A stretch of 63,390 nt of DNA, filler included, from Folioceros fuciformis (Eukaryota): assembly GCA_049999805.1 (NCBI GenBank). It is 10 parts of 10 records of this genome, joined end to end, with 100 filler letters (N's around TTAATTAATTAA, not from the genome) between each part and the next. Parts side by side here need not be neighbours in the genome. Positions count along the whole stretch, not along the records: positions 1 to 7,069 come from JBNGIO010004833.1; 9 more parts are not named here. The stretch is one strand, 5' to 3'. Below, one piece after another: positions 2,902 through 62,665 of the stretch. Both the position numbers and the translations under genes were made by a program. A model generated the notes under the pieces. The model saw nothing but the letters and a program-made list of their open reading frames with translations, made no database searches and was not told where the DNA came from. How positions within the stretch are numbered: position 1 is the first letter of the stretch; each line of letters opens with the position of its first letter.

Positions 2902-3177
2902 TGAGTGGCATAAAGGTTAAGAATAATAGTTATTTATCCAGCATTACTTAATTACATAATAATTAGGGCAGATAGTAAACGAGTAGATTACAATCGACAC
3001 AACTAAAGGGTTCTGACTCAAAACACAACAGTCACGCACTTTCACGGCCACGGAACACCACAACGGTTGGTCTCGTGACTATTTAAGGAGCCACACGGCT
3101 CTTCCTTAATCTATCCTCCTATTCTCTAATCTAGCTAGCTTGCTCTCTCGATCCTACAAGCTTTATGGTATCAGAGC
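2902..3177 (+). mobile_element. Copia 5' LTR (~260 bp) and tRNA-iMet PBS, nested in the RT of the preceding element
   Basis: RT homology stops at a TG at 2902; PBS TGGTATCAGAGC at 3166-3177. Confidence 0.8.
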
Positions 3178-3178: not shown

Positions 3179-4040
3179 ATGGAGGGTGCGTCGTCACCAT
3201 GCATCTGTGCGACTTGCAAGAGCCTGAACTATATCAAGAACTTGTCGCTTGTAGATTTCAGGGCGGCAACTTCAGCACTCAGAGTATCTCTTACCAGGTT
3301 TGGCGCGATGGCCGACGCATTCCTTGCAAACGCCGTGAGCCACTATTACGAGTGACTTTGCGCTATGCCGAGAGCATGAGGTAGAGGCAAGAACCTGCCG
3401 AGAGATCCTTTCTTTGGCGGTTGTGGCGCGTCGAAGGATATCCACCTGCAGAATCTGCATTGCTTCTTTGACACGCATTGCAATCTCTATCCTCCGCACA
3501 CGCACAAAGTCAAGAAGAGTCAGTATAGGCATCACACAGCACAAGTCTGTCAGCAACACCAGAAATCTGACTCTCCTGTCTCACCTAGAAGCCGGATTAG
3601 GCAAAGGTTTCACGAATCACACGATTTTTCTGAACAAAGAAGACATCAGTTTGCACATCCTAGCACTGTCCGATAGGTCGCTGATAGAGGTGCTCCATTT
3701 GATTAGGTCACAGACAGCTCAAGTCCACAATCTACTTGCGACTCACGCTGCACAGGCGTGGTAGCGATCCGTAAACCTGTCCATTGAGATTAACAACATT
3801 AATACTCACATTAGAACACTAACAGGACAGATTAAGAATCTTACAGTGTTATCCTTGAAAAATTCTGCACCTGAGTCTTCTTCACTCGCACCGATTCATA
3901 TCACAAGCGCACCGGTTCACATCTTGCAGCAAGAAGAAGAACGACCAATCATGAAGATGATCAAGGTTATTCAAAAATATTATCCAAGCTGCGTGGAGCA
4001 GCTGACAGCCCTTGAAGCTGAGGCTGCACTACCTTTGTGA
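3179..4040 (+). pseudogene. Decayed extra ORF between PBS and gag
   Basis: ATG directly after the PBS with CICATC. Frame 3414-4040 has a single internal TAG (3762) and a heptad stretch LSIEINNINTHIRTLTGQIKNLTV. Confidence 0.45.
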
Positions 4041-4323
4041 ACCCCTGTACATGTCATACAACGCCCTAGGACGTGGAAGTAAGGTTCCGAAAGGTACTAG
4101 AAAAGTCAGAGGCACAGGCAGGGGTGTCATACCTGTATCTAACACATTACCTAAAGATCCACTCTCACTTTATTCCCAGTCCTCATCACAAGGTAGTTCA
4201 GATACTATAGATCCAACACTAGCTGCCATTCAAAGAGCACGTCTTGCGAAAGCCTTAGCAGATACACGTAGAGACCAAGCAGCATTGGTCGCACGAACAC
4301 TTGCGTCACAAGTAATCAATACA

Positions 4324-7069
4324 ATGGCCAATCAAGTACCTGTTGTCACTACCTTGAAAGTAGACTTTAAGGAGAAGGACCGCTTCTCTGGCACTCAGTT
4401 CGACATCTGGTCTCTTAGAGTACAAACTATTCTCAAGGAAAATGGGCTATGGGAGGCAGTCAATGGTGCTGTACCCAAACCTCCTATTGCCACTTCTACT
4501 CCTGCTGCAATTGAGGCTTGGGAGAAGCTCGATCTTCGACCTCTTGCTGTTATCCAGTCCGCACTAGATGGATCTATGATGTCACATACACAAGATGTGG
4601 CCACCACCAAGGAAGCATGGGACTCTCTCACGCATACCTATCAAGTTAACAATGGCTCTTCAATGGTTGGCGCCACAAGAGCATTCTACAACTGCAAGAT
4701 GTGTGAACATGAATCAGTCGAGCAAAATGTGGTGAAGTTTAGACAACTGAGGTCTAAGCTTACCTCAAGCGGAACGAAGACCATGGAGATGCAAGCGGCG
4801 GTTGCTCTTCTTCTCTCTCTTCCTCCCAGCTACAGGACTTTTGTAAGCAACCAGAGTTCTGCACTGCGTGTTGCAGCCCAGAATACACCAGCAGGACAGG
4901 CTCCTGCTGTCACATTATCTGATGTGATTGGAGCTCTTCTCGAGGTGGAGTCCACCAGAACTGTCAATTAAGGCGGCACCTCCTCCTGAGGAGAGTCATC
5001 CACAAGGGCGCTCTACGCAAACAAGGGGCCCAGGAGACAACCACCAAGGCACTCCTGGACACCAAACAACAACAACGCTGCTTACAAGAAACATTCACCT
5101 CAAGCTCCAGCTAAAAAGAAGGGGCCTTGCAACTGGTGTCTCATTCTTGGACACCGGGGAAGCCGACTGCAGAAAGAAGAAGGCTGACGAAGCTAGAAGA
5201 TCGGCACCACCTAAATCTAATGTGGTACAGCGTAAGGCAAACACTCTGCTAGCTGTATGCATGGTCTCCACCGCATCCAATAAGCATGTATGGTTTATAG
5301 ATTATGGTGCGTCTTCTCACATCTGTCACTGCAAAAACTCTTTCATAGAGTACAAGCCATTGCCACCTGGACAATTTGTATTGCTTGGAGATGACAGTGG
5401 TCTGCAAATAGAGGGGATAGGGTTAGTCCCTATCACTTTATTTGACAAAACTACCTTGGTCTTAGAGGATGTTCTTCACGTACCTTCAATGGTCAAGAAC
5501 CTAGTGTCAGTCCGCAAGTTGACTACCCAGCATTTGTTGAATGTGTCCTTTACAAGGGTACAGTGTATAGTCACTGATCCACAGTATAAAAATAAGTTAG
5601 TAGCAACTTGGGCACCATTCCACGACCTGTATCAACTTAATGTCACCTCTAAGCTAGGTCTCCCTCCTACACGTGCACAAGTCAACATGAGTCAGGACAC
5701 CAAGCAGAAAGACAAGGATGCAGCTTGCTGTGGCATTGCCGTCTAGGCCATGCTAATTTCGAGAAGATCAAACAAATGGTGGCTAGCACAACTCTGTACA
5801 GAGAAAAATTCATGCTTCAGTTTGTGGACAAGCAATTCTGTGAGGCATGTGTGTTTGGGAAGCATCAATGACTTCCCTATACGGATGACAATCCTACACG
5901 AGCCACCAAGCTTCTCGAGGTTGTTCATTCTGATCTTTGCGGTCCTATGTCCATAGCTACCTGGGGTGGAGCCTTATACATACTCTCTTTTATTGATGAT
6001 TGGAGCCGCTCTGTGGTTGTCTACTTCCTCAAACACAAGAGCCAGACGCTTGGTTGTTTTAAAGAATATGTTTCGTTTGCACAACGGCAAACTGGAGAGC
6101 AACTCAAAACTCTGCGCAGTGACAATGGCGGGGAATATATCTCAGCTGATTTTCAGGATTATTGCAAGGCACTGGGAATCCAAAGGCAGCTAACCGTACC
6201 TTATACTTCCTCGCAAAATCCGCTTGCTGAATGAAATAACAAGCATATGCAATCTGTAGCCAAGTCCATGCTGAAAGTTGCTGGCCTCCCACGAAGCTAT
6301 TGGGGTGAAGCCGTTGCTACTGCAACCTACATTAGGAACCGGCTCCCCACTAAGGCTTTCCCGGGCTGCACACCTTTTGAGCGCTGGACTAGTCACAAAC
6401 CCCGTATCAATCACTTATGCATTTTCAGCTCCCCGGCATATGCACACCTTGCAGAAAAACAAAGACTCAAGTTAGACTACAAAGCAAGAAAGTTTGTGTT
6501 CATAGGGTACACCGAAGGCATTAAAGGCTACAAACTCCTAGATCCTGTCACTAGGACAACTACTCATGCACGCAGTGTAGTGTTTAATGAGAGATTGTTA
6601 CTTACACCTGCATTGACACAGTCGCAGTTAGACATGCAGTCTCAACCTTCTGATGCTGAGCAAGGTGATGATGGCGATCTTACTACTACTCAGACGTCCT
6701 CCCAACCAGTAGTACCCCCTGATAGTGACAGTGAAGATGAACCGTCTGACTTCCCTGAAGATGAAGTTGAAGAGGTTAGTGAGCATCAGCCTAATCTATC
6801 AGATGCTGATTCATCTCCAGATGATCCTCTACCACAGGAGGAGGACGTACCTGAAGAAGTGCCAGTCCTTCGGCGCAGCTCAAGGCATCATACAGCATCC
6901 TTGGATGAATGGATTCAGCCTCCACTTACATATCAGAGTTTTCTGGTACAGGAAGACATGCCTCTTGACTTGGGAGAGCCCCAGTCATATCAGGAAGCCA
7001 TAAACTCTCCCGACAAGGAAAAGTGGCATGCTGCAATAGAATCTGAGTACAAATCCATCATGGACAACA
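4324..7069 (+). pseudogene. Ty1/copia gag-pol (gag, zinc knuckle, PR, INT, RT start), frameshifted and cut by the contig end
   Basis: Gag FDIWSLRVQTIL; protease WFIDYGASSH; integrase FIDDWSR, RSDNGGEY, WGEAVATA, FIGYTEGIKGYKL; EPQSYQEAI. Confidence 0.93.
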
Positions 7070-18112: not shown

Positions 18113-20210
18113 TCAAACCTGTGTTATTTGACACAAGTCATTCCCTTGGGATTGAATCCCATGGCTACAACGACATAGAGGGTTTGTGTGGACCTCGCAG
18201 CACCCCCGGGTGCAATATTTTCTCCCACACTTGGGATTAGGCTCCCGCATCTTCACTCGGTTTGTTGCCTTCCCGACTACCTCCTGCTTGCCTACTTGCT
18301 GAGAAAAACACAGCTCACTACTTTTAGAGGCTACCTGAGCGAATAGCCTACTCACACCGTCTTCAACCTCTGAGTTCTTCCTTGCCAGAAGCCCATGCTC
18401 CCCTGCCCTTCCTGATGGCCGACCTATTTGCTCACTAGCCGCGAACTCGTAGCTAGGAACCCCACTGGTCACTGCGTTTTTACAAAGGGAGGGGGCTCTG
18501 TCTTTTAGACTGCCCTTCAATGGCTCGCCATTCCTCTGTTCACTCCTCACTCGTACACCTTTGTGGGTCTTCCCCCTTGGATACTGCTTTTTCCTCCCTG
18601 AATGTTCCAAGCTCTCGGCACCCGCTCCTGGTTGTTGTGCCTGAGCTGTGAGAATCTCAAATGGCCTTAGGATGCCTTGGCCTATTGCTGGAGCTGAGGA
18701 GGGGGCGACCTTGGATAACCCTGGGAGTCCAAGGCCTAAAGCTTTAATCACCTCCCCTTCAGAGAGGCCATCTCCTGAGGTACTTGAGGATCTCTGCTGA
18801 AACATAACCTCTCCTTGAATGTCTTCCTTCCATCTGAGCTCCCACTCCCCTTGAAGTTTGATTGAAATCAGAGAGGTGAGCAATCTTAAGAAACCAAGGT
18901 GAGCTTTAAAGACAACTTTGGTTGCAAGGGTGACCCTGCCTCTGCCAAACTTTGCATCTTTGACTAAGGCTAACACCTTCGACTCCCCCAGCCATTGTGA
19001 CTTGTTGGAATTCAGGATCCGGCACTCCAACCCCAAGTCAAGCAAGGTGTTAAAGTAGAGGATCGCCGAGGAGCCTTCATTTTGATGACACACAGTGCTG
19101 AATCTAGCCTCCCATGAAAATTATTTGTAGAGTCCTCAGGCAGCGCGTGCATTTCCTCCCCATTCAGCATTCAGTAATAGAACGTATTATCCACCTTCTT
19201 CTGCATGAGAACACAAACTTTCACTTGTGTCATGGTCGTGTCAGCCATCCTCGGGAAGATCTCATCCTGGATTCGGCGAGCCCACCGTTGTGTTACCAAG
19301 TTCGCCCTCTAGAGCTTCTTCTGGACACCTTGGAACCCCGGTAAGGGTCCAGACTGTTTCACCTCTACTTTGTCACACTTGCCTCCTGGTCCTGAGCAAA
19401 GCGGACAAGCTTGCTTAAGGTGGTTAGGTAGGCCACAAATTCCACATTTGACTGGAAGACCTGGGTAGTCAAAGAGCTGTGTATAGCACTTAGAAGAATC
19501 TTCCGGGTCACGAACAACCACACCCGCAGGCAAGGATGTGAGATTATCAACTCTTACTCCGAATCGTGGTGACTTGCTTTTGTTGAAAAAACGGGAATCC
19601 ACCTTAGGAACCTCTACTACCCGACCAATTGTCTCCAGAATTTTGTTGATCAAAGGAATAAGTTGCACCGGTAAGGCGGGCAGCTGCACCCAAACAAAGT
19701 GCTTCTTGATCTAGGATTGCATGATTGTGCTTCCAAGAGACCACGACTCTACCATCACCGGGATTGAGTCTCGGAAGAGCAACGTTGTTTGTAGGAGTGC
19801 TAGGGCCCCAGCTGCTTCATCGCATTTAATCTGAAAGGATCCATCCTCTTTCAGGAAGACATATGCGGGGGGACACCCTGTAATTTGCACCATCCAATTC
19901 TCCAGTTCCCCCATAGTAGGAGGCCCTCCAGCAGATAGCCGCCCCACGATAGAGTTGAAGGCCAACCTATCTTCCTCCTGCTGAAAGAACCGTTCCTCGG
20001 TGAGGATGTCCGCCAAAGGACCAAGTTGGATGCCCAAATCCTCATTTGCCGAGACCGATACAGATTATGTACTTGTGCCCTGATTTGACCTCCCATGAGC
20101 GGCGTCATTCTCAAGATTCCGTACCTGGGCCTCCTTCTCATGCTATGCTTTCTTCCACCTAAGATCACTAGGATTAGTTTCTGGTGCCATTGTGTTAGGC
20201 TTTCGGCCAT
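18113..20210 (-). pseudogene. L1-clade LINE ORF1 (DUF4283 + CCHC zinc knuckle), ORF2 absent
   Basis: SIVGRL...ELENWM...GSFQI...VESWS...VWVQLPALP...IGRVV...YPGLPVKCGICGLPNHLKQAC. Frames 20037-19711 and 19689-19309 are one frame with a TAG at 19711. Confidence 0.85.
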
Positions 20211-20924
20211 TCTGCTTGTCTAAGCACATACTGACCACCCTGGCCCACGTGCTGATTGTCATGCCCTCCCACGGGGGCTCACTGCTTCCATCGTAGCTTC
20301 ACGTGTCTAGCTACCGCTCCATGGCGCTCCAATCGCTCCCGAAAAATAGTCCCACAACGACCCAAACACCCTAAACCCTAGACCTTTCCTTTCAATTCCT
20401 TTTTCAAGTGAAGCCATTCCTAATCGGGTAGAGGCTTGTATGTTTCATCTTCAGTTTATTGAAGTCTCGAGAGAGCCTCAAGCTCGTACATCTTTGACTT
20501 TCTCAAGCTCGTACATCTTTGACTTCATGACAACGATTGCCTCTATTAGCTCGTCACATTTTGGAGTGTCTTATGTAGATTTATAATTTCATTTTAGTTC
20601 ACTATGGTGGGTCATCTTGGCATAGCCTCCTACTGAGGTTCTCCTCCAATGGCGTATGCTGTTTGCTGCTTTTGGGTGCACATGCCATCTCTTCTCTAAT
20701 TGCTGAGTGTGCTACTTTCGTTACTAGTGTTGCCACAGCTGCCATAGCAAGCTACCTTGTGATCTTTATTTCTATGGTCGTTGTTTCAACCGTAATGCTT
20801 CTAGGTTGTAACACTCCGCCACGGATTGCATGTGTTACCCAGAGAAATCTGATTTGTTGCTCACGAGGTGTGCAAGCATATATTCACGGTTCCTGTTGTG
20901 GTCCTCTCTATAACCTATGTTAGG

Positions 20925-21499: not shown

Positions 21500-21607
21500 N
21501 NNNNNNNNNNNNNNNNNNNNNNNNNNNNNNNNNNNNNNNNNNNTTAATTAATTAANNNNNNNNNNNNNNNNNNNNNNNNNNNNNNNNNNNNNNNNNNNNA
21601 AGTTTGC

Positions 21608-24600
21608 TTGCGCGGGTTAACACCTGCCTACAAGCAGTTCAAGACTTCCATACAGACTCGGGAAAACATTCCCAATTTCTCAGACCTGATTTCTATGTTG
21701 ATCATAGAGGAGAAAAACCTAGGCGAGGAATCATCCTCTAAGCCTAAGGAAAACTCTGAGCAGGCCTTCTATTCTGGCAGAGGCAGAGGTAGAGCCCAAG
21801 GTGGCAGAGGGCAAAGAGGTAGTAGAGGTCGGAATCCCTACCAAAATCAACAACAGAATCAGGAGTCCCAGTACAAGAGTACACGTGGAAGAGGAGAAAA
21901 TTCTCGAGGCTGGGGGAGTCAAAGAGGACGTGGAAATCAACAACAAAATGATGCAAATGCAGACAATAGTGGTTGCTGGACTTGTGGTAGGTTAGACCAC
22001 TTCGAAAGAGACTGTCCAAGGAGAAATCAAGGCAACAAGAGGCAGCAGAACAATTATGCCTCTAGCAGCAGTCAGAATGACTCAGAAAACTTGTTTGTCA
22101 TGCAGCATATGCTTAACTCTGTGTCTGCTAATGGATCCAACAATGGTGAGATTGTGTGGTATGTAGACTCAGGAGCTTCGAACCACATGACATGCCATGG
22201 GGAGTGGTTCAAAGAAATGCAAGTGCTTGACAGACCTGGATATGTAGAAACTGGAGATGACACAACACATGCAATTGTGCATACAGGAACTGTACCTCTG
22301 AAGATGCAGGATGGCAAAGTGAAGTGCCTGGTAGATGTTCTTCACGTACCCAACATCACAAAGAACTTGGTGTCAGTTGGGCAGATGGTTGAGCAAGGAC
22401 TGCAGGTTAGATTTACACCTGCAGGACTCTTTGTTGAAGAGTGCAAGAAAGGCGATCGCCTGATTGCTCAAGGACAGAAGGTTGGACGGATGTTCACCTT
22501 GAACGTGGAGGTTCCTAAGCTGAAGTCAGCCATGTTTGCGAAGGGTACAAGGGTAGTGACAGACCTAGAGATGTGGCACAAACGCATTGGACATGTAAAT
22601 GTGCAGAAGTTGAAGTCCATGCAGCATCAGAAGGTTGTCACATGCATACCCAAGCTTACAGAAAATGGACTGCAAGGTATATGTGAAGCATGTCAACTTG
22701 GGAAACAGCCTAGGAATGCGTTCCCCCATGACAAACATGTCAGCAGATATGTGTTGGATGTTGTGCATTCAGATGTATGGGGTCCTACACAGACTGCATC
22801 AATCGGAGGCTGCAAGTACTATGTGGCCTTCATTGACGACCACACAAGGAAGGTGTGGGTCTATTTCATGAAAGAAAAAAGTGAAGTGATCACTCATTTT
22901 CATACTTTCAAGGCGATGGTTGAGAAGCAGACAGGTAGGCACATCAAATGCCTAAGATCTGATGGAGGGGGAGAGTACTTCTCCAGAGAGTTCAGCAAAT
23001 TCTTATCAGAACAGGGCATTCAACGGCAGTACTCATGTCGTTATACGCCACAACAAAATGGAGTTGCAGAGCGCAAGAACAGGCACATAGCAGAAGTGGC
23101 GAGAGCCTTGATGACAGAGAAGAAGATGCCTCACTACTATTGGGCTGAAGCTGTAAGCACAGCAGTGTACATCATGAACAGAACTCCCACAGCAGCGGTG
23201 CACAGTGTAACACCGGAGGAGAAGTTCACAGGGAAGAAACCTGACTTGTCACACTTAAAGGTATTTGGTTGCATTGCTTATGTCCATATTCCGGATGAGT
23301 TGCGGACTAAGCTTGATCCAAAAGCAGAAAAGTGTGTCTTCATTGGGTATTCTGTTACACAGAAAGGATACAGGTGCTACAATCCCAGTACACGGACTAT
23401 GAGAGTAAGCAGAGACGTAGTCTTTGATGAAATGGGTAGCTGGTACTTTGAAGTACAAGGAAGTAGTGTAGCTGATGTGCTTGAAACTGAGGTAACAAGC
23501 AATGCAGGTCAACAATCACAAGTGTTGAGTGGACCGCAAGCGTCATCAAACTCGACAAATGTTCAGAATCCATGGAGTGGCAGGTTGCGAGGTAGTGTGA
23601 GTCCTACGAGCTCCACAGCTGTGTCTCGCAAAGGGAAGGAAAAAGTCCAGGATTCAAAGATACCAGACCTAAGTGCAGGTGCGGATGATTCAAGCAACTC
23701 TGAGCAGAGCTTGGATGAGGAATTCGGTGTACCGAAAATCGAAACACCTGGTGCAAAAGAGGTTCAATCAGCCCCTGGAAGTGGTTCAATCCCACGGAGA
23801 TCTGGAAGGCAGAAGGTTCCAATACAGCGGTTGACCTATGATAGCTATGTAGCTAGGCACCATGCCTATATGGCAAAGGTTGTACAAGATGTGGAACCAA
23901 GAAGCTTTGAAGAAGCTATTGGAGACACAAAGTGGGAACATGCTATGGATGAAGAAATGAATGCGTTAAATCAAAATGCAACATGGGACCTAGTACAACT
24001 ACCTGAAGGCAAGAAACCAATAGGTTGCAAATGGGTGTACAAGGTCAAACACAACGCAGATGGTAGTATCAACAGGTACAAGGCAAGGCTTGTGGCCAAG
24101 GGATATGCCCAGACATATGGAATAGATTTTGAGGAGGCGTTCAGTCCAGTTGCCAAAATGGCAACAATTCGAACCGTGATCGCACTAGCGGCATCGAAAG
24201 GTTGGGTCCTACATCATATGGATGTGAAGAATGCGTTTTTACATGGAGAATTGCTGGAAGAAGTATACATGGACCAGCCACCAGGTTATGAGGATTTGGA
24301 TCATCCAAATCATGTGTGCAAGCTGAAAAAAACGTTGTACGGACTGAAGCAAGCCCCGAGGGCTTGGCATGAGCGTCTTGCTCAGCATCTGATTCACATC
24401 GGATTCAACATGGCAGATGCGGATCATTCGTTGTATGTGTGCAAAAGTACAAAACGACTGGTCTTTGTGACCATTTATGTGGATGATCTAATCATTGGAG
24501 GTAATCAGTTGGATCAAGTGGAGCAGATCAAGGAACTTCTACAACAAGAGTTCAAGATGGTGGACCTAGGTGAACTGAGGTTCTTTTTGGGCATTGAAAT

Positions 24601-25241
24601 TATACGAACCAACACAGGCATTTGGCTGTCACAGCGGAAGTATGCGTCGGATGTACTAACTAAGTATGGTATGGTTGAGTGCAAGCCAATCTCGATTCCT
24701 TTGGATCAAAATCTAAAGCTCAGTGCTCATGATGGTGAAGCACTTGAAGATCCAACAATGTACAGGAAGATTGTGGGTAGCTTGATATATCTCACTCTAT
24801 CCCGACCAGATTTGAACTATACAGTGGGATTGCAAAGTCAGTTTATGCAGGCGCCAAGAAAGCCACATTTGGACGCAGTAAGGCGAACGTTGCGCTATGT
24901 GAAGGCAACTATGGATCATCCTCTCTTTTATGTTGCAGATTTAGAAATAAACCTGTGTGGATACACAGATGCAGATTGGGCAAGCAGTGTTACTGATCGT
25001 AGATCTACAAGTGGATTCACTTTTTCACTTGGGAGTGCAGCAATTACATGGAGTAGCAAGAAGCAGCCTACAGTGGCTTTGTCTAGTACAGAAGCTGAAT
25101 ACAGAGGCGCAGCAATGGCAGCGTGTGAAGTGACTTGGATTTGTAAGTTACTCGGAGATTTTGGATTGCAGGTCAACGACAAGGTTGTTATCTACTGTGA
25201 CAATCTTAGCAGCATACAGTTGGCGCGAAACCCAGTGTTTC
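21608..25241 (+). CDS. Ty1/copia gag-pol polyprotein, uninterrupted, partial at both contig ends
   Basis: [29 protein letters not shown]...CEAC; HSDVWGP, SDGGGEY, QNGVAER; IYVDD; YTDADWA, TEAEY, YCDN. No stops over ~1210 codons. Confidence 0.97.
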
Positions 25242-31692: not shown

Positions 31693-33244
31693 ATTATTCT
31701 GAGCACTTACGTGTGCATTGATTTTTTGGTCACTTGACAACAACACCCCCTGGTTGCCCAGCCACTCTCCCCACCTGGTTGCTGCAACCACCCATGCCCA
31801 TAGGATTTCGTAGAATCGACGGATGGGCTGTCTTGGGGTATGCTGACCTTGGGAAAATTCCTAGATTTGGTAGGAGTCCTCCACCGGCCACTCCTCCTCC
31901 TCCCCCTCATAGGCCAGCAAGTGCACCTTGGCCCCTTGGCAATGGGTCTTGGTGTGGCCTTGCTCACCACAAGTGGAACAAAACAAGTTAGCCTTGCCAC
32001 TAGCTGCAGCCCTCCTCCTCTCATGCTCCTTGACAGCATGAAGGTGGAGCTTCTCAAACTTACTCAGCATCTCCTCCATCTTGGATTCTTGCTGTTCCAC
32101 CTTCTTGGCTGCAGCCTCAGCCTCTTTTTTGACCTGCTCCACCTCCCTCTTAGCATGGGCCACCTGTTGCTTGGCCTTGGTCAGATCCTTGGCCTTCTTG
32201 GCCTCCCTCTTTTTCCTTCCCATCTCCAGCTCCTTCTTCTTCCTTCTCCTCCTAGCAGCCTCATCCTCCGAGGACTCCTCATTCGAGCTATCCTCCACTG
32301 AAGATATGGAGGCCCCTGCTAATCCTCCTGAAAAATCACTTTCCTCGAAGGATGAGTCCCTCTTCTTCTTCCCCTTCTTAGGCCTGTTCTTCCTCTTGTC
32401 CTTCTCCTTTCCTCTCTCCTTCTCCTTGGATTTCCCTTTGCCCCAAGGATGAGACTCCTCGTAATTGAGATCTGCCCTTATAGCCCTGTCCACATCCTTT
32501 TCTGCAAACAACTTCACATGGCCCCCCATCCTCGATCCTAGGCCTTCAACAAACCACCTAATGGCCTGTAAATCTAAATGAGGTCCACAGCGATCCCGCA
32601 GGCTGTGGAACCTCTCCACATAGGCCTACAAGGTCTCCTTCCTCCTCCTCCTCAAGGCCTCCAGCTTGGACAACACGTAGCCCTCTACGTCTATCCCCCT
32701 GAACCGCTCACAAAAGGCCCTCTTTAGCACATCAAAAGGTGGCTGGAAATGTGCCAGCCATGAGGTACTCCCTCTTGTACTTCTTGGCAGGCCCCCCACA
32801 CAGCACACCATAGAACAATTGGATGCGCTGTGCATTCGCTGATTCCTGGTTAGCAAGGGTTAGCTGCTCAAACCTCTTCACAAATTCATCCGGGTCCTCA
32901 TAGCCCTTCTTCTCCCCATACAAGGGGTACGGCTGCTTGGTGGACATTGCAACAGCTGGTGTCGCCATGGTGCTTGCACTCCCTCTTGCAGTTGCAGATC
33001 CAGCAGGTCCAGCCCCTGGAATTTGGCTAATGTTGCTGAATCCTTCAGCTCCTGCACTCCTAAGCCCTTGCACAAGCCCAGGTTGACGACCAAAGGGTAG
33101 ACTCGGGTTAGGTTGGCTTGAATTAGGCCCTCGCCCATAGTAGAAAGTTGGGGGTCTTGCTCCAACGTGACTGAATCCCCCATGGCCTGCTGGTTGCTCA
33201 CCCCTCTCCTCCTCCTTGCTGGTGTATGACCTGGTTGTGCCCAC
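31693..33244 (-). pseudogene. Ty3/gypsy gag (capsid + K/E-rich linker + CCHC knuckle)
   Basis: EDPDEFVKRFEQL; LKRAFCERF; RWFVEGL; CSTCGEQGHTKTHC. Located just downstream of the PBS. Confidence 0.88.
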
Positions 33245-33439
33245 CTCAGCTCCCTCTATATTGCTCTTTGCTCACGCTCCAATGCTTGTTGCTGCCTCCT
33301 TGCTTGAGCTTGAGCTCCCCCTTCACAGCTGGAGTTCAAATCTTCAGCACCTATGCCGGGCATCCATCAGCCCTGCCACACTCCCTTGTACAAACCCCTA
33401 TCCAGGTCAGTCCTCTCCAGCCCTTGATAGCAATGTCAC

Positions 33440-33457
33440 TCCTTGGCAGCGGCGCCA
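33440..33457 (-). promoter_or_regulatory. Primer-binding site, tRNA-Asp type (Athila-like)
   Basis: Minus strand TGGCGCCGCTGCCAAGGA versus the Athila consensus TGGCGCCGTTGCCGGGGA, 3 nt after the LTR end CACCACA. Confidence 0.8.
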
Positions 33458-33460
33458 AAA

Positions 33461-36400
33461 TGTGGTGTGATTTCTTGCACCCAAGAACCACCACACTTAG
33501 CAACGGTAGGGGAAGGTGAACCACCGTCATGGAAGGACGACTAGTCGAGGAGCTCTAGGGGGTGGCCTAAACCTAACCCAAATCTAAGACATTCGCCTGG
33601 CGAAGACAGCTAGCCAGGCCGCTAGCCCAACCCCCCTCAGATCCACTTTGTCCTGCTTGCCCAAGCAGCTGGCCAGAGGCCCCTAGGTGCCAGGTCGCCG
33701 TCGGCTGGATACTCCTGCAGCCTGTCTCGGTTGCTTTCCATGGCTGCATATCCTGCCAATCGAGCCGTTCTATGCACACCAGCCAGGGTCCGTCCTCCAG
33801 ACATCCCTGGTCTAGCAGTCCTCCGGCGGGGGATACTTGCCAACCATCAAGGATATCCCCCACAATCCCAATTTTGGGCTCGCTTCCTTGTTGCCGGTCG
33901 TCGGCCGGGCCATCTGCCGAGACTTGGCTAGGCGACCATTTCTCCCCCCGGGACCGGTCTGCTCGGCTCGCCTGCCTTCATCCTAATCTACTCCTGTGGT
34001 TCGGCCTGGCTTCTAAATCATTTGACCCCAGCCACCTACCATGCCGACCCCTCCTGGCTGTTTTTAGGCCGGGCGATCGACTACCCAATGTAGTCAACCA
34101 TGCCACTATGCTCAGCCGAGACCAGCCACGCCGCCTAGCATCTCGCCATGAACCTACCCTGGTAGTTCCTACCAGCCAGATGGCATGCCTGCTCCCCTAG
34201 CTGCCGGGCCGCCCCAGCCAGCGGATCCGCACCCCGATCGGCCTCTGACCGCCTGGCTACTGATCAGCGGCTGGTCGCTGTTGAGCCGGCCCCCTTGCTA
34301 CTCGCCTTGCCGATCCAACTAGGCGCCCGCCTGCCATGCTGATGGGCCAGGCTGCCTACATGCTAGCTGCCTGGCGGGATCCGCCTGCCAGCCTTTGCCC
34401 TATAGCCAGCCGGCCTGCTAGGCCCAATTGGGACCCGAGCCTGGATCCTACCCTGGCCTGCTACACCTGCGGATCCAACTCCGCTTGCCTGGCCTGGATC
34501 CTGTGCCGCCGCCTGCCTCCAGCCACTGCCAACACGGCTAGCCGACCAGCCAGGCCGTCGGCCTGGCTCCCGAATCGGACAGCCAACTTGCTGCGTCCCG
34601 ATCTGCCCCTACAGCTGGCAGGCGACTGCCTGGCTAGCGCTCCACCTGCTAGCCAGCACGGCGTGTAATAGCCCGAGGCCCGCCTGCCCATTCTGATTTC
34701 CACGCCTACGAGGCTGCCTTTCTGTTGGCGGCACCGATCCACCAGCCCCCCCGGCTAGCCCGTCTACCAAACCTGGATCGGCTTGCAGCTCGCCCACACC
34801 CCCTGCAGTGGCCCTAGCTAGCCGATCAGCCAGAACGCCCGCCTGGCTCCAGCCGTGGCTAGCCGTTTCACCAGCCACCAACTTTCTTGGCTCGCTCCTG
34901 GCCAGATCCGATGCCCACTCGGCCTAGTTCCAACCCCGAGCTGCTACAGCCAACCCGACTGATCGCTTCACGAGAGCTCGGGCTGCCTGACTAGCTTCAG
35001 GACCCAACCCCAGCTGCCAACGCCTTCCCCTCAACTCCGACCAACCCAGCTGCCCAGCTCGACTCCAGCCCGCGCTCCAACAGCCCGCATGCCCGTCTAA
35101 ACCATACCGAGCTAGATCAGCCTGCGTCTTACTGCTGCCTGGCCGCGCCTGGATGTTGTCAACCCCCCTGGCTGATCCACCCCGGCCTCGTGTCCCAGCC
35201 TGCCTCTAGCCACCGATCTATCCAGCCTGCATGGTTTGCCCCAACCAGACACGTGTGTCCCCGATCCGGCCTGCCTCTAGCGCTCGCCATCACCAATCGG
35301 TTCCAAGCCGGCCTGCCCTGTTCACCTGCAGCAGCTTGGCTTGCTTTAGATCGACTAGCCAGGCCGGCGGATCCAGCGCCGCCACTGCCTGGTGGCTTCT
35401 CACCATGGTCCAACTCTTTCCCCTATGGCGAGCACAGAAAACATGCTGCAGCTTTTCGCAAGAACCACGAAACCGACTACACCACATGCAGCCCTGCACC
35501 TTCCACCGACCCACGCTGGCTGCCCAGATCTACCCCAACACCATCTAACCGATACCAGCCGATGGCGGTGCCTACCTAGAACCTGGATCCATCGTCTCCC
35601 TGGCCCTCTTGGTGCGGCCTGGACCCCAGTTGCTGCCGATCCCCTGCTAGCTGCCCGTTCGCGGCCTACACCGGCCTGAATTGGCCACCGACGGCCTGCT
35701 CCAAAGTCACCATGGCCCGGCCTGGTTGTCCCCTCTATAGCAGCCGCCGATCCGGCACCTACTGTGGTCGGGTCTACCTTCTGCCATAGCCGCCACTACC
35801 CGGTCTCGCCCTCGGCCCGGATCTGCTCGTCTCCTGGATCCTCCCCTGTCAAGAAGCTCCCCCGGGCTGCTGCCATCGCCGCCATCTACCTAAGCTAGCC
35901 AGCCACTCCAATTAGCCGGCCTGCCTGCCGGCTGGCTACCCCTCAAGCTCCCATACTACCTGGCTCCGGTCGTGAATAACCCCAGCCAGCCCGACCCTCG
36001 GCCTGGCTTAGGTCCATCCTGGCCAGCATGGGTGCGCCGCCACCACCCGCCTTGCCCGCCACCCATGTGTACCGAGGCCACACACCAGCCTTGTTGGCTT
36101 CCGAGTCCAGCACCCTGCTCAGCTGCTATGTTTGGACCAGAACGGAACTGCTCACGCCTTGCCTGGCCACCTAACCCGCCCACTGCTCTAGTAACAGCCC
36201 TAGAGGCCTGCAACCCTGCGGCCATCTTTGGCCAGGCCCCCTTAGATCCGGCCAACCCCTTGGCCTAGCTCAGTTGCTCGACACGCCTTACTCCTAGGTC
36301 TCCATCGGTCGGCCCCCTTCGGCTTCGCTACCCTCCAGACTCGGACTGACCCGCCTCCCAGCGTCGCCTAGCCTAGCTGCATGGCCGCTTGCGCTGGTCT

Positions 36401-36937
36401 CGAGTATGCCTTCACCTGGCTGGCCTGCTGCATGGCCCAGCCGAGTCCCATCCATCCTGGTCCAGTGCCGTCCTCCTGCTGAAACCAACCGCTTCGGCCT
36501 GACACGCCACGTCTGCCAGCCCTCACCGCTTGGATCCACCAAGGCTCGCCTAGCCCAAATCCGACACCACCTCTGCTTCCTACCTGACTGGATCGGGCTA
36601 GGTTGCGGCCTAAGCTTCCCAACAGTCGCCAACCCGGCTGCCTGCTCCCAGGTCCTCGGCCCCAGGCACCTCGATCTCCATCTCCCGCTTCTCCCAACAA
36701 CACCCAGAGGAACCCCGGCTCGCCTTCCACGACCCATCCTAGGGTTTCCTATTCCTCCGTTACCTTACCCTGAGGAACCAGAGCCCGTGTCCTATCTACC
36801 ACACAACCTACCTACCCTATCGACTCACCATAAATCTAGCTACTATTCTAACCTAATATCCCAACCTTTCCTCTACAGCACTCACTCACAGATCCAAAAA
36901 AAAGAAAACCTATCATTTCCCAGGGGTCTATTCAACA
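33461..36937 (-). mobile_element. ~3.5-kb GC-rich 5' LTR of the Athila-like element, inserted in a copia integrase
   Basis: Minus strand TGTTGAATAG... to ...GCAAGAAATCACACCACA; copia integrase homology resumes at 36938. Confidence 0.75.
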
Positions 36938-38855
36938 TGTAGAGTCCAAAATCCCCCTCTCAAGACAGAAGTCCTTAAATTGCTGATTATTTAATTCTTC
37001 TGCATTGTCAGATCTAATGCACCGAAACTTGCAACCGGTTTGCCGCTCAACCATAGTGACAAAAGGAGTACAGGAGCCGAAGGAATCACTCTTCAACTTG
37101 AGCGAAATAGCAAAGGTATAGCGACTATAGTCATCAACAATAGTCATAAAGTACTGTGCACCGCAAAGGGAAGGGACAGGGAGTGGACCACAAAGATCAA
37201 CATGGACCAACTCCAAGGGCTGAGTAGCCCGATGGGCAGGTAGAGTAGGATAGGCGAAGCTACATTGTTTAGCACGTATACAAGGTTCACATAACGGTGG
37301 AGTCTATGAAAAGTGTTGTAGCTTATCCCTAAATAAATCCTGCCTAGACATCTCTAAAAGCTTATCATGATTAATATATCAAAGTCGAGAATGCCATAAT
37401 AGGGAGTCACCTTTGCGAGAACTCCCTCTATCGATCGCAGTGGCCATTGCAGGAGCTGTGGTTGAGGAATCATGGATCACTGGTACGGTGGAGAAGACAT
37501 ATAGGTCATGTCGCGGATGACCTCTAGCAATCACGCGACCATGAGCAACAGATCTTGTGAGGAGACAATCGCCTTTGCCTAACTCTAGCCTGAAAGTACC
37601 GTCCTTCACCAAGTGTCGGACGGAGATAAGATTCGTCGCCATTTGCAGAACATGTAGCACATCACTTAAAAGAAAGACAGAACCATCTTCAAGAGTAAAA
37701 GTAACAGTGCCAGTGCTCGCAATAGTAAGGCTGGAGTCGTCCCTAAGAAGAACAAAACGTTGATCTTCGGAAGGGGATAATTAGAGAACATATGGTGATG
37801 ACAGAAGATATGTGCCGAGGCAGCTGAGTCCAATAGCCAAGAGGTCTTATATTCAAAAGCTACCAAGCAGACTGTGAGAGCAATGTCGGCCTGCTTTTGC
37901 TTGGAGGTCGAAGCCATATTAGCAGAAGACTTGGAAGGGCGTCCAGGCTCACTAGCTTTCTTCTTGCGGCAGTCAGGCTCCCAGTGGCCTGGAATCTGGC
38001 ACCAATTGCAAGTACCAAGCTTGCGGCCGTAACCACCAGGCTTGGAGTATGGAGGGCCGCGAGAGGGAGTCGGAGAAGGCGCAGTGAAGGGCCGTCTCTC
38101 AGGTGGAGGAGGACGACGTCGCGGCTGGGGTTGGTGACATTGACAGCCTTTGCTAACAAACCTAACTCTTTCACCACGATGCTTCGAAGTGCCAGCTTTG
38201 TATCTGGAAGCCTCCTCTTGAAGGAGTGTGCCAGCAATTTTGGATATGGAAATGTTGGGGGCGCAGCCAACCTTTGGAAGCATGATGAGCCTCTCGAATA
38301 GTGCCATTCTGAGAGCACACAAATGCTTGAAAGCTCGCGGGAAGGAGGCCAGCAATTGGACACAAGCTTCGAATTCCGATAAGGGAGTCCCTAAAGCAAC
38401 AAGTTGTGCCCGAAGATAACGAAACTTCCCGACATCAGTACCAATGCTCTCATTATTAAGCATGCGTAAGGAATAAAATGTGTTACGCACGGTTACTGAT
38501 GTCATAATATTGGTAGATTGAAAACATATCGGATAGCTGCCGCCAAGCCTCTGCAACAGTGATAGCACCACCATCAATATGATGAAGAGTGACTTCATCT
38601 AGGCCGGAAATAAGGATATGCATAAGCAAGCTTGTCTTGTTTCAACCAAGAGTTGAGGGCTGGCAAGGGCCCAATGGGCTTGAGAACAATCCCATCAACT
38701 ATGCCAAGGAAATCTCTGGTATTCAAGATAGATTGTATACACTTGGACCATATTTCAAACTTAGTGCCGTCAAAACGGTCGTTCTCCTTAAAGTCAGAAG
38801 TCATATTCATATAAGTGAGGATGGGAATAGGTGGCACAATCGAAGAGGTAGCCAT
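36938..38855 (-). pseudogene. Copia gag-PR-INT (degenerate)
   Basis: FKENDRFDGTKFEIWS; CNWCQIPGHWEPDC; WLLDSAAS; LWHSRL; VHVDLCGP; IVDDYSR; IRSDNA. Confidence 0.92.
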
Positions 38856-39056: not shown

Positions 39057-40577
39057 TCAGTCACTTGGAGCATAAACAGTGGCAAGTTGCTGAATAGCTT
39101 GAACAATTGATTTCACCGACTTAGAGAGCTGGTGAAGATGATTCCAAAGATGATGACACTCTTGTTGGAATAGCTCTTGAGCAGTAGCACCAGCTTGCTC
39201 GTAAAAATAACACTGAGGAGTAATGTCTTCAGATTGAAGGCGTGGTGACAAGGGCTCTTGCTTGATTGCTAGAGGTGGAGTAGCTGAAACGTGAACCAAT
39301 AAAGGCTGCTTACAAGGGGGTGTCATGCTCCGAAGAGTTGCAAGCGAAGGTTGTTAAGGTGCACTAGGAGATCTAGAGGAATATGCTAGGTGGGCCCCAC
39401 CAGATACCCCAAGAGCCAATCCTGTATGCACATCAAAAACATATTGAAACTGGCGTTTCAAAACTCGCCCGTTTGCGAGATGGCACCGTTTCGCGAACGG
39501 GTGCTGAAAAATTAGTTTTCGGGCCTCTTTCACGAACAGGTGCCCAAAAAAGGTTTTTAGGGCACCCTTCGGAAACGGGTGCCACCAAGGAGGGGGCGCC
39601 CTCTAGTGAGACACGCGCACCACTGCTCAGCGGCGATCCGGATCTGGAGTCTCCGATCTGGATCGATTCTGGGCGGATTTGGGGCGCACCTGCTGTAGGA
39701 GGGGCGCCCTCTCGAGGCGACCTTGCTGGCTGGAGATTTGAGCCGGCGCCGGCAAGAGCTGAAACTAATTGGTCTTGGATGCCCGCTGAGGGATTTGCAG
39801 AAATCTCGATTTGTTTGAACGTTGGAGCTCTCATGCCTGTAGGAATTTGGATGCCAGATGATTGCGCCGTTGCTGAAGTGCAGGTACAACTGATTTGATG
39901 AGGCATTATGCCCGCAATAGCAAAGGTGCAACTATTCAAATCTTTGATTCATAATCTGTTTGGTGGAACCCTAAAAACCTGCAAATCTGACGAGATATTA
40001 GTGTGTGAGGGGGCGCCTCGGGGAAATGAAGCGCCTCCTGTAATCTCAATGATGGGTCTTAGCTCTCGGGTCCAAAATCTAGAGAGGAAGGCAGTAGCTG
40101 CAGAGATGTCAGCCTTCAACTGCTGATAAGAAGTCTCCTATTTAACTGGCTGAGAACCTTGTGCTGGGAAAGCATGAGAAGGTACCCTGTCCAGATCAAA
40201 TTGAGATAACTGATGATCTTCCACTGGGCTCAAATTAAAACAGTTGACTGGGACTTCTACCTTCTCCATGGATTGCCCAGATGATAAATAGCACTTCTTC
40301 TTATTTGAGCCAGTAGGTGTTCGATCATCTTTAGCTGACCTCTTAGATAGTGAAGTGAAGAAGAGGAAGTGTGAGTTAGAGTGGCTGGAGTATGTTGAGG
40401 TGAACTCCTATGTTGTCGAAAGGATGATGATTGATGATAGCTGCTAGATACATCCCCACAATGACGCAATAGACTGGAGTCTGAACTGTTTGACCAATGT
40501 CCTTTAGATAGATGAGATATCCGAAAGCTTGAGTCTTTGTTAGGAAAATCATTTTGAAGAAAGAAGTTGGATAGCAT
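39057..40577 (-). pseudogene. Decayed extra ORF upstream of copia gag
   Basis: Chain of sense ORF pieces (40577-40257, ~40260-39433 with only two internal stops, 39326-39057) ending in heptads LWNHLHQLSKSVKSIVQAIQQLATV. Confidence 0.45.
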
Positions 40578-41293
40578 GAAGGCTATCTTGCTCCCTAGGT
40601 TGTTGAGAAATGTAGAATTCAGCCTATTATAGTTATGAGAACATCAAGGATGCACTGTACGTCTACTTCTCCTCTCTAATTCTCCATTTCTCCTTGCATG
40701 ATAGCTCTTGTGATTGTTTCTTCTTGCCATGTTGTAACTTTATGTTAAACAATAAAGGAACAATATTTTGTGTAAGGAAGAATGAGTAGAGTGCTAAAAG
40801 GAATAAGATGAAGAATGAGAGAGTGGCAATGAGCTATGAAACTTTAATGAATATAAAGGTTAATCATAGAAGAAGCAAAACTATTTTATTAGAAAAAACA
40901 TGTTTGGTTGAATATAAGGGAAACTATGAATAAGTATAAAAGAGCTTCATATTACAAATACCAAAGGCATAAGAAAGACGTTGCATATTATAAGAACATC
41001 TAGATTCATATCATAATGCATGATGAACTTAGTAATCAAACTTGTGCTATGATACCAAGTTTGTGGTGCTTTGCAAAAGCGTTTGATCAAAGTTAGTGCT
41101 TTACTAATTGATACAATTGATTACAAAAGGTGGGCTTTTATAGCCTGTGTTTTTAGAGTTGTACCTCTTCGGTACTAAATACCAAAGAGTATGACCACGC
41201 TGGGTTTAGCTAAGTTAACCTTAACCAACGCGTTCTGTACTTCTAACTCTCCTGGTGTTCAACCCAAGCCTCTGGTTTGTAAGGTTCCTCCAA

Positions 41294-44022: not shown

Positions 44023-44451
44023 CTAGGAGGATTGAACACTCAAGGTAGCAATCTACTCCTTGAGGCATGTGATCTCTTTGAAGTGTTTCTTTACCTCTAA
44101 TTCTATGCCTACCAATGACAAAGAATCTGACCCCTTTTGATTCTCTAAACCATCCATACGGGAAGAAAGACTGTCTTATCTTCTGGAAGACTCCAGGATA
44201 GAAGATTTGATGATCAAGAGAGAGTTCAGGATAGCATCAGATTTTTCAAGGTCCAGAGGTGAGTGATAGAGAGAACAATTTACAGATTCGGGAATGTAAC
44301 TTACTGAACAACTGACTCTATCTAACCTATTTGATCTGTTGACAGACGTGGAGGATTCAAGGCTAGGAGGATCTGGATTATAGGAGTCAATAAAAGATTT
44401 CAAGAACCCGAACATGCTCACGCTATTCGTTTGGTGTAACTGTGTGGGCAA
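44023..44451 (-). pseudogene. 3' part of a decayed extra ORF upstream of copia gag
   Basis: One frame with TAA/TAG interruptions reading ...LSSRMDGLENQK...VKKHFKEITCLKE*IATLSVQSS*, ending ~25 nt before the gag ATG. Confidence 0.45.
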
Positions 44452-53400: not shown

Positions 53401-53618
53401 AAACTATTACCTGCTTTTGGTGGACCACAAAAGAAGAGTCTACCAAATGTGGGAGTAACAAATGCTAGCTGCTTTGTTCGGAAGGTTGGGAGATATGTCG
53501 CTAAGCTGATGTTTCGCTGAAGCTTTTCCCTCAACAATGCTGCTTTCCCATTGCTGTGACTTGCATACTTCCATTGTATATTTTTCAAAGTTATATTTTT
53601 TTCCAACATTTCCATAAT
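50452..53618 (-). CDS. TRN1: TORNADO1-like Roco GTPase (last LRR, Roc, COR, coiled coil, C-terminal domain); exons 53618-53411, 53331-52064, 51954-50452; 5'-partial
   Basis: GT-AG introns at 53410-53332 and 52063-51955 give one open frame of 992 aa. Roc motifs: G1 GPPKAGKTS, G2 TEGIEV, G3 WDLAGQ, G4 THLD. COR: YLHDSGNIIYF, GRRLQC, FFPRFQV. TRN1-type tail: LHLMCE...QVRY...AWVC. Family call, not proven orthology. Confidence 0.88.
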
Positions 53619-54712: not shown

Positions 54713-54891
54713 CAAGGACCAAAGCATGGAAGGGCTAGGAGCTTATAAAGGCCTAGCCAAGGACCAAAGCATGAACGAGCTAGGAGCTTATAAAGGCCTA
54801 GCCAAGGACCAAAGCATGGAAAGGCTAGGAGCTTATAAAGGCCTAGCCAAGGACCAAAGCATGGAAGTCTAGGAGCTTATAAAGGCCTAGC
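54713..54891. repeat. 45-bp minisatellite x4
   Basis: CAAGGACCAAAGCATGGAAGGGCTAGGAGCTTATAAAGGCCTAGC at 54713, 54758, 54803 and 54848. Confidence 0.97.
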
Positions 54892-55532: not shown

Positions 55533-57480
55533 ATAACACCCTGGATGTCTCTTTTAGAGGTCTGCAATGCACTGTTACAAATCCCCAACATAAAAATAAA
55601 GTATTAGCCACAGGTGCACCTTTCCATGACCTGTATCAGCTGAACATTTCCTCCAAGTTTGGTCTCAAACCTGCACAAGCACACGCCAATGTCAGCCGTG
55701 AAACCAAAAGGAGGGAGGCAGTTATGTTGTGGCACTGCAGACTTGCCCATGTAAACTTTGACAAGCTAAAGGCAATGGTGGCCAGCCCAACCTTTATAGA
55801 GAGCCATTTGTGCTTCAGTTTGCAGAAAGACAGTTCTGCGAGTCGTGTGTGTTTGGCAAACACCATCGGCTGCCATACAAGGATGTGAATCCTACTCGGG
55901 CCACCAAGGCACTTGAGCTGGTCCACACTGACCTGTGCGGCCCTATGTCTACAGCTTCCCTAGGAGGAGCACTCTATTTCCTTACATTCTTAGATGACTG
56001 GAGTAGATATGCTGTGGTATACCTGATCAAGGAGAAAAGCCAGACCTTGGGTTGTTTTCAGGAGTATGTACCATATGCACAATGGCAGACTAGAGAAACT
56101 CTGATTGCCCTGCGCAGCGACAACGGGGGTGAGTTCACTTCAAATGCCTTCAAGGATTATTGCAAGGAGCTGGGGATAGTCAGGCAACTCACCGTACCCT
56201 ATACTTCCTCGCAAAATCCTCTAGCAGAGTTGAGTAATAAGCATCTTCAGGAATTTGCTAAGTCTATGCTAAAGCTGTCTGGTCTTTCCCGTGATTACTG
56301 GGCAGAAGCCATAGCAACTGCAGTCTATGTCAGAAATAGAGTACCCACTAGTGCATTCTCGGGTGCCACTCCCTTCCAGAGATGGAAAAAACATAGGCCC
56401 CGAATTAACCACTTGAGAATATTTGGGTCTCCAGCTTATGCACACCTGTCAGAACAGCAAAGGGTTAAGTTAGATTACAAAGCCCGAAAGTACATCTTTA
56501 TTGGCTATACAGAAGGTATAAAGGGCTATAAGCTGTTTGATCCCTCTACTAGAACAACAACACATGCACGCAATGTGGTATTTAATGAGCAGCTACTCCT
56601 GAATTCTGTTGTACCCCAACCTGACCTTGATGATGACCATGAAGGCGTTACAAGTCAGTCAGATAGTCCTCCTTCCTTTCCAGTAAATCAGACTTCAGCT
56701 GTTCACCCTTACGTTCCAGCTAACCAGAACCAGACAAGTTCTACCCTACAGCAGTCTGATAGTAACACAGAAGAGGAACCCTCAGACTTCCCGGATGATG
56801 ACTCTGTCAGATTTCCAACTGACACACCTGCAGTAGACACTGAAATTAGGGAATCATCTGTGGAAGATAACTCTGGAATAGAGGGACTGCATGACAATAT
56901 ACCTGAACCTGAAGAGGTAACAGCTCCAAGACGAAGCTCTCGGAGGCACACATCATCTCCAGCTGACTGGAAGGAACCACCTTTGACCTACCAGTCATTT
57001 CTAGTGCAAGATGGGAATGAACCACTAGACCTGGAAGAACCTCAATCATATCAGGAGGCAATCAATTCAGTAGACAAGGAGAAGTGGACTGCTGCAATTC
57101 AGTCCGAGTACCAATCAATTATTGATAATAAAACTTAGGTGTTGGAGGACCTTCCTCCCGGACGCAAAGCGGTCACATGCAAATGGGTGTTTAAAAAGAA
57201 ACTAAACTCAGATGGTTCAATTGCTAGATACAAAGCACGCTTGGTTGCACGAGGCTACAGCCAGGTAGCAGGTCTGGACTATACTGAAACATTCTCACCT
57301 GTTGTACGAGCAACATCTGTGCGGACCCTACTGGCGGTTGCTGCACAACATGACTATGCCATGCATCACATGGATGTGAAGACCGCATTCTTGAATGGCA
57401 CTTTGGAGGAGACTATCTACATGCGCCAACTTGAAGGGTATGTAGATAAAAATCACCCAAACAAAGTTTGTAAGTTGTTA
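55533..57480 (+). pseudogene. Copia INT-RT, close relative of the 4324-7069 element
   Basis: [54 protein letters not shown] at a conserved Trp (57136). Confidence 0.95.
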
Positions 57481-62543: not shown

Positions 62544-62665
62544 GAATCGCAATCGCACTCGACCTGCGCATTTCCTGTCTCAAATTGAGAACGGCGAGAC
62601 TGTAAATCGATCCTGTGGATTGTAAATATGAAAACTGTACAAGGAATTGCTCAGAGAGCATATGA

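Follow-up and report, generated by a model that had tools for sequence, protein, structure and literature searches.

Two short protein-coding ORFs precede gag in a clade of Ty1/copia retrotransposons of Folioceros fuciformis

Copia elements are the textbook minimal LTR retrotransposons, and a sense reading frame between the primer binding site (PBS) and gag of such an element raises the question of what this leader encodes. The element considered here lies in 63,390 nt of Folioceros fuciformis DNA (GenBank assembly GCA_049999805.1), a stretch of contigs joined by N-linkers that we refer to as the window. It sits near 3 kb on contig G000:C4833, which ends at 7069, and is called the 3-kb element below. 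An initial annotation had read 3179-4040 as one frame, a lineage-specific accessory ORF0 interrupted by stops and ending in a coiled coil. We find that the PBS-to-gag leader of the 3-kb element is two genes, not one. After the PBS come ORFa, a 9-nt spacer, ORFb, a 10-nt spacer and the gag ATG at 4051:

2906..3165, + strand: 5' LTR of about 260 nt with TG...TA ends; the start is approximate and is where similarity to the sibling loci L002 and L004 begins
3166..3177, + strand: primer binding site, which we take to be of tRNA-Met type, TGGTATCAGAGC
3179..3355, + strand: ORFa, 58 aa, open in this copy, with a Cys-rich N-terminal loop and a helical hairpin
3356..3364, + strand: ORFa-ORFb spacer, 9 nt
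3365..4040, + strand: ORFb, with an RG-rich N-terminus, helices and a coiled coil near 3765-3850; three breaks in this copy
4041..4050, + strand: ORFb-gag spacer, 10 nt
4051..4323, + strand: gag N-terminal extension, RG-rich and starting at a weak-context AUG; an inner strong-context AUG follows at 4324
4324..7069, + strand: gag-pol, decayed and cut by the contig end, with gag, protease (5291-5530) and integrase (5911-6441)

The gag-pol assignment comes from Pfam (PF14223, E 5.5e-25; PF13961; PF25597) and from tblastn. tRNA-Met is the usual PBS type of copia elements (PMC6317226).

Evidence for two cistrons came from related copies in the same genome. The leader DNA used as a query gave 18 matches at 65-100% identity, and their translations keep a fixed order: the PBS, an ATG a few bases on, a 58-codon ORF, a stop and a short spacer, followed by a second ATG that begins an RG-rich ORF and, past its stop and another short spacer, an ATG in the gag frame. 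When ORFa was searched as a protein, 90 of 92 candidates matched, the most distant at 38% identity; one locus from an ORFb search brings the set to 91 loci. These include 59 distinct copies with an open ORFa of 53-64 aa, in 22-27 families at 70-80% DNA identity. A stop is present at the homologous ORFa site in 87 of the 91 loci (three lack it and one is interrupted), as TAG in 54, TGA in 26 and TAA in 7. The ORFb ATG lies 5-13 nt past the ORFa stop in 62 loci, in frames 0, 1 and 2 in 21, 12 and 29 of them. Because the stop is fixed in place but can be any of the three codons, and because ORFb occurs in all three frames, ORFa and ORFb are separate cistrons. That they form one protein through stop-codon readthrough, as the single ORF0 would imply, is extremely improbable: they are in frame across a TGA in the 3-kb copy, as they are in 21 of 62 loci, but ORFb is in another frame in 41 of 62 and all three stop codons occur, and the use of three frames therefore excludes readthrough as a rule. 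The initial annotation was right that the leader is coding, is lineage-specific and contains a coiled coil, but its single frame is two cistrons divided by the conserved stop at 3353-3355. This stop had been counted among the interruptions of that frame, and the more conserved cistron, ORFa, had been missed.

The remaining interruptions are a TGA at 3377, a 17-nt deletion and frameshift near 3663 relative to the closest siblings, and a TAG at 3762, all of them decay of the 3-kb copy alone. Among 62 distinct loci with an ORFb ATG, 44 have a recognisable gag ATG and could be evaluated; ORFb is stop-free in 12 of these 44, with 188-243 aa, and ends 8-17 nt ahead of the gag ATG. On balance, we read the 3-kb element as a decayed copy from a Ty1/copia clade with a three-cistron RNA, encoding ORFa (~58 aa), ORFb (~190-245 aa) and gag-pol.

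Both ORFs have recognisable features of their own. An AlphaFold2 model of ORFa (pLDDT 87) consists of an N-terminal loop followed by helices at residues 24-37 and 43-57. The loop carries three cysteines, each kept in 90% or more of 46 rows; ORFa also has two conserved histidines, and these residues suggest that it may bind zinc. ORFb always starts with MPR and continues with a basic RG head and helices; many families also have a Cys-x2-Cys. A long helix is predicted at residues 108-159 (52 residues; pLDDT >89 over most of it, in an uncertain overall fold with pTM 0.27), and hydrophobic residues peak at a period of 3.5 over residues 126-160. Prediction of an ORFa-ORFb complex, run without alignments, scored 0.01.

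Evidence that the two ORFs are protein-coding came from substitution patterns. We calculated dN/dS by NG86 on natural copies with stops masked, for pairs in the pS 0.3-0.5 bin. Between families, dN/dS was 0.26 for ORFa (40 pairs) and 0.22 for ORFb (4 pairs), as compared with 0.20 for the gag extension (10 pairs) and 0.12 for the gag core (12 pairs), while shifted-frame controls on the same columns in the same bin gave 1.08-1.70. The initial annotation had named a value near 1 as the outcome that would speak against coding, and both ORFs are far from it. Since protein-guided alignment may bias dN/dS, the comparison was repeated on DNA-only alignments at 70-80% identity. Mismatch at codon positions 1, 2 and 3 was 0.21, 0.15 and 0.45 for ORFa (84 pairs), 0.20, 0.15 and 0.47 for ORFb (6 pairs), and 0.24, 0.18 and 0.36 for ORFb of the sister subclade described below (44 pairs). 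Conserved residues use many synonymous codons. Since pairs and families are related, these counts cannot be treated as independent, and just 4-6 pairs fall in the unsaturated ORFb bins. A leader that is non-coding, or a captured host fragment in neutral decay, has almost nothing to recommend it: ORFb has stops or frameshifts in most copies and near-identical copies show dN/dS of 0.86-0.89, as expected for decay after insertion, but dN/dS between families is 0.2-0.4 with synonymous sites saturated (as in most pairs), third positions show an excess of mismatches, and start and stop are fixed across 22-27 families. ORFa and ORFb are thus, with near certainty as to their coding status, protein-coding genes under purifying selection, distinct from each other and from gag.

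The two extra ORFs mark a single integrase clade. In long ORFa loci, gag, protease (PR), integrase (INT), reverse transcriptase (RT) and RNase H (RH) are collinear at constant spacing in many loci, the domain order of Ty1/copia; gag, PR and INT are present in the 3-kb copy. A 3' LTR match was found in 14 of 20 long loci at 87.6-100% identity (three matches are short or doubtful), with a purine-rich tract ahead of it, and the elements, 5.7-6.8 kb in length, thus have two LTRs, a PBS and a polypurine tract. Ty1/copia LTRs canonically have TG...CA ends, with a 5-bp target duplication. Here the LTR ends in TA in 51 of 76 PBS-bearing loci, including the 3-kb copy (3164-3165), and in CA in 16 of 76; near-matching 5-bp flanks were seen in three of six elements checked. 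TGTA and TATA LTR ends have been described in lotus copia elements (PMC9804982). The integrase tree has 43 rows; four nested-insertion loci were relabelled, and loci whose integrase is short or missing were excluded. In it, all 31 rows with ORFa group with a further integrase of the window in one clade (support 100/97), in which the sister subclade is basal:

55912..56439, + strand: integrase of a second ORFa-clade element, placed within the clade and 97% identical to that of L114; the contig start cuts off the leader of this element

Among named proteins, those closest to the integrase come from ferns (53-57% identity), and one further protein matches at 76%. The gag of the 3-kb element as a query gave no protein match at 1e-10.

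The sister subclade was counted at 24 loci; L059-L069, L074-L077, L108-L111, L122, L126-L128, L131, L144 and L148 are assigned to it. ORFb starts 168-384 nt past ORFa in 18 of the 24, across a spacer that contains AUGs, and is 196-228 aa long in the 12 examined. The spacer also holds a decayed RT-like piece, presumably resembling the RT C-terminus. ORFb of this subclade has a Cys-x2-Cys-x4-His pattern, which we take to be zinc-knuckle-like with the last Cys missing and which gives no Pfam zf-CCHC hit. In this subclade gag is extended by a long Ser/Pro/Glu-rich stretch whose frame overlaps the end of ORFb.

AUG depletion and graded start contexts lead us to lean towards a scanning-based mechanism for reading three cistrons, with two forms of Gag, from one RNA. 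Ribosomes scanning the full-length RNA would read all three cistrons, partly by leaky scanning and partly by resuming once past the short ORFa; AUGs would have been thinned in ORFb and the gag extension so that ribosomes could pass; and of two gag AUGs, the weak upstream one would yield a long RG-tailed Gag and the strong inner one the canonical Gag. In 14 family representatives, ATG occurs 41 times in the first 80% of ORFb against 92.8±6.2 expected, a depletion of about 2.3-fold, and 17 times in the gag extension against 44.1±5.2. It is mildly low in ORFa (77 against 98.8±6.6) and enriched in the gag core (158 against 120.8±8.2). Counting against the scanning model, the control triplet CAT is somewhat low in ORFb too (121 against 150±10), though normal in the gag extension and ORFa, and ORFb is AUG-poor rather than AUG-free, with 3-9 AUGs per copy, mostly in the last fifth. 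Eight families share among siblings 10 AUGs in the first three quarters of ORFb, none of them in frame and none in a strong context; the L099/L101 gag-core control was excluded from this comparison because of a nested insertion. An in-frame AUG lies 18-27 codons ahead of the ORFb stop in 7 of 8 families, and ORFa has a conserved in-frame Met 15 codons ahead of its stop in 49 of 59 copies, in a strong context in most; these AUGs may be structural methionines or short catch-and-restart frames. The start contexts are graded. The first gag AUG has a pyrimidine at −3 in all 44 copies; the ORFb AUG has a −3 purine in 43 of 44; and for the inner gag AUG, −3 is A in 24 of 31 copies and +4 is G in 28 of 31. 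At the ORFa AUG, 54 of 59 copies have G at +4 and 40 of 59 have a purine at −3; this start cannot be called weak, which also argues against scanning.

It is unlikely that ORFb and gag-pol of the same three genes are instead expressed from spliced or internally started subgenomic RNAs. The fairly strong ORFa AUG and the length of ORFb fit such a model, and splicing is used by the plant copia elements EVADE and BARE1 and by Ogre, according to PMC12786077. However, we found no invariant splice dinucleotide (GT or YAG) in a splice-like context in any alignment column, the most conserved AG/GT columns are explained by conserved codons, and the model does not predict AUG depletion in ORFb and the gag extension. 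The one presumed RNA sequencing run covered 3 of 30 bins, none of them in the leader.

Still less likely is strict termination-reinitiation, in which ribosomes would restart at the AUG 5-17 nt past each stop, as in caliciviruses or SART1. A conserved UGGGA upstream of the stop constitutes the TURBS motif, and of the 59 ORFa copies only 12, and of the 24 ORFb copies only 5, have TGGGA ahead of the stop. The free choice of frame between the ORFs is consistent with reinitiation, which moreover ignores Kozak context and would suit the weak gag AUG. Both spacers of the main subclade (5-13 and 8-17 nt) are within the range of less than 20 nt given for TURBS-type reinitiation (PMC10275272), but the AUG-containing spacer of the sister subclade is far outside it, and reinitiation leaves the depletion of AUGs unexplained.

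The functions of the two proteins can be approached through composition and fold shape. With its basic RG head and coiled coil, ORFb would be an oligomeric accessory protein that binds the element's own RNA and serves its export, translation or packaging, and ORFa would be a small zinc-binding partner or regulator. We put forward this RNA-handling role tentatively. We give less weight to the possibility that ORFa, ORFb or both act in counter-defence, as anti-silencing proteins, or that ORFb is a particle-associated coiled-coil protein. Some plant-virus silencing suppressors are small, Cys-rich, basic and coiled-coil proteins, which the leader ORFs resemble, and the leader ORFs evolve faster than the gag core. 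Coiled-coil oligomerisation has also been predicted for VANC21 and an Athila domain (PMC13547354). Nevertheless, Pfam, sequence and fold searches give no link from ORFa or ORFb to any such family.

Homology searches with both ORFs were blank, in protein libraries that hold few eukaryotic transposon ORFs and in which blanks do not show absence. Pfam gave nothing near the cut-off for either ORF, a phage collection no match, and fold searches no match above background; for ORFa the best Z was 4.4 among 48,161 chains, with Foldseek E of 8.8 (PDB) and 2.8 (viral). An ORFa profile run against 1.84 billion representative proteins gave three hits, all tandem-repeat artefacts, the ESM Atlas gave no usable hit, and a metagenome scan with one ORFa copy matched 0 of 600 stretches. 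An ORFb alignment matched none of 2701 candidates from 5.8 billion proteins; the ESM Atlas returned only leads under 0.9 and a PDB sequence search generic coiled coils only, at E 0.06 or worse.

The initial annotation had also linked the 3-kb leader to two further copia elements of the window, near 44 and 39 kb, through a coil motif shared by the ends of their 5' frames. All three heptad-like peptides and the gag starts are present where it had placed them, and sibling copies and relatives bear out that the 44-kb and 39-kb elements carry 5' ORFs of their own:

3819-3848, + strand: LTGQIKNLTV, in the 3-kb element
ending at the stop 44025-44023, − strand: LKE*IATLSV, in the 44-kb element
ending at the stop 39059-39057, − strand: IVQAIQQLATV, in the 39-kb element
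44023..44442, − strand: 3' remnant of a different 5' ORF of the 44-kb family, its 5' part displaced by another repeat; no ORFa
39057..40730, − strand: decayed long 5' ORF of the 39-kb family, ending in the coil, with a tentative 5' end; no ORFa

The three elements do not belong to one lineage, as had been proposed: in the integrase tree the 39-kb element groups with two relatives (100/100) and the 44-kb element forms a long branch whose exact place is unsure, both outside the ORFa clade. The 5' ORF of the 44-kb element stops 23 nt ahead of the gag ATG at 43999. In its family this ORF encodes 181-182 aa, mostly ends 23 nt ahead of gag, and has 0-2 stops in five siblings; mismatch by codon position is 0.165/0.163/0.314 in 2 pairs and 0.117/0.110/0.188 in 6 pairs, a third-position excess. 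In the 39-kb family an AT-rich spacer of about 180-200 nt leads to gag. At L169 the coil of this family is fused in frame with gag, as opposed to the ~200-nt AT-rich spacer at window 39057-38855 (− strand) and at L170, a difference that an intron or a fission might explain.

The recurrence of a 5' ORF across the three elements holds; a shared motif is unproven. Smith-Waterman comparison with shuffled controls showed no clear excess, one pair being marginal (p = 0.34 for the 3-kb and 44-kb coils, 0.04 for 3-kb and 39-kb, 0.62 for 44-kb and 39-kb). The score of the 44-kb coil against an ORFb profile was reached by 71 of 500 shuffles and that of the 39-kb coil by 22 of 500. Profile-profile comparison of the coils of four ORF groups gave probabilities of 1.2% or less, a weak test of low power given that the two sister ORFb groups also scored 1.2%. 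A fourth copia family (window 13884-13532, − strand; L175-L185) has a PBS followed 23-34 nt on by an ORF of 201-209 aa, which starts MPR/MSR-x-GG, is coiled in its C-terminal half and is separated from gag by about 500 nt. The ORF is open in 3 loci; the family has no ORFa, the ORF gives no clear match to the ORFb profile, and its diverged pairs mismatch least at codon position 2. We consider rather doubtful the broader proposal that copia elements of this host have both evolved a three-gene RNA resembling that of badnaviruses, encoding two new protein families, and acquired, in at least four separate lineages of the genome, a basic-headed coiled-coil 5' gene, through an ancient diverged gene or convergence under one host defence. 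If this is real, copia biology would generally include small 5' accessory genes, overlooked because of the 250-codon cut-off of the main survey.

Elements of the ORFa clade share LTRs, a tRNA-Met PBS, the gag-PR-INT-RT-RH order and a length of 5.7-6.8 kb with plant Ty1/copia. The internal region of Ty1/copia is almost all polyprotein, whereas the ORFa clade has two selected ORFs before gag and an RG-rich Gag extension. The extra ORFs of copia in REXdb are those of SIRE (3', 74%) and of a few percent of Bianca and Ikeros, in a table whose column placement is ambiguous, and the survey set a minimum of 250 codons (PMC6317226), which neither ORFa nor ORFb reaches. SIRE elements (Sirevirus) have their extra ORF 3' of pol and are ~10 kb long, whereas in the shorter ORFa elements the extra ORFs are 5' and the 3' LTR follows soon after RH. 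Sense extra ORFs on the 5' side have been described in the gypsy lineages Tat/Ogre and Tekay (PMC4408406; PMC6317226). Ogre/Tat lineage IV and Tekay are alike in having a sense extra ORF ahead of gag, reported with a coiled coil in Tat lineage IV, but theirs is a single long ORF with a plant mobile domain in gypsy elements, in contrast to two short ORFs in copia; Pfam finds no plant mobile domain in the leader ORFs, and their pol order is that of copia.

The nearest functional parallel is with viruses of the family Caulimoviridae. RTBV and badnaviruses express ORF I, ORF II and a polyprotein from one RNA via leaky scanning (PMC5902531) and are described as having a Met-tRNA primer site, two small ORFs, a capsid-RT polyprotein and an avoidance of internal AUGs. 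They differ in that the ORFa clade consists of LTR elements with a copia integrase and RT, and that badnavirus ORFs I and II are AUG-free, whereas the ORFs of the ORFa clade are AUG-poor. The Pfam viral ORF I/II families do not match ORFa or ORFb. The Cer1 nuclear export protein of C. elegans, an LTR-element accessory protein that acts on the RNA of its own element, offers a functional model only: it is made from a spliced RNA of another superfamily (PMC12786077). Green-algal polycistronic mRNAs likewise have short spacers between ORFs, and upstream AUGs limit their leaky scanning, but they are described as host genes with a weak first AUG (PMC11291117), and the ORFa AUG is moderate to strong. 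Searches of a largely open-access literature turned up no account of a copia element with two ORFs ahead of gag, and the REXdb supplements may list single copia elements with 5' ORFs.

The ORFa clade is diverse (22-27 families, 90 matches, some with near-identical LTRs) and has kept two orphan proteins ahead of gag until synonymous saturation. Accessory genes, and probably polycistronic translation as well, are present in elements in which neither was expected, and the clade suggests that other genomes have similar genes concealed by length cut-offs. Its two proteins, small and foldable, and its two short junctions lend themselves to direct tests of RNA binding, silencing suppression and translation control.

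The window contains several further features. Additional copia families (30670-29963, − strand; L133, L171 and L172) have long low-complexity Gly/Pro/Ala-rich frames that run into gag. Decayed frames at 19300-20220 (− strand), upstream of the copia pol near 18 kb, look like a non-LTR ORF1 by eye and have no Pfam hit. The 39-kb element is interrupted by a GC-rich stretch (32000-37000, up to 65%), whose tested ORFs gave no Pfam hit; tandem arrays of 25, 45 and 63 nt also occur, and 62641-62836 and 54702-55432 were noted along with the GC-rich stretch. A host-type Roc-COR gene lies in AT-rich DNA at 50452-53663 (− strand; PF16095, E 2.2e-8; PF08477, E 3.5e-6). Finally, an open copia pol frame of 1213 aa from another lineage (21602-25240, + strand) fills a whole contig, and its integrase is 98% identical to that of an element nested in L101.
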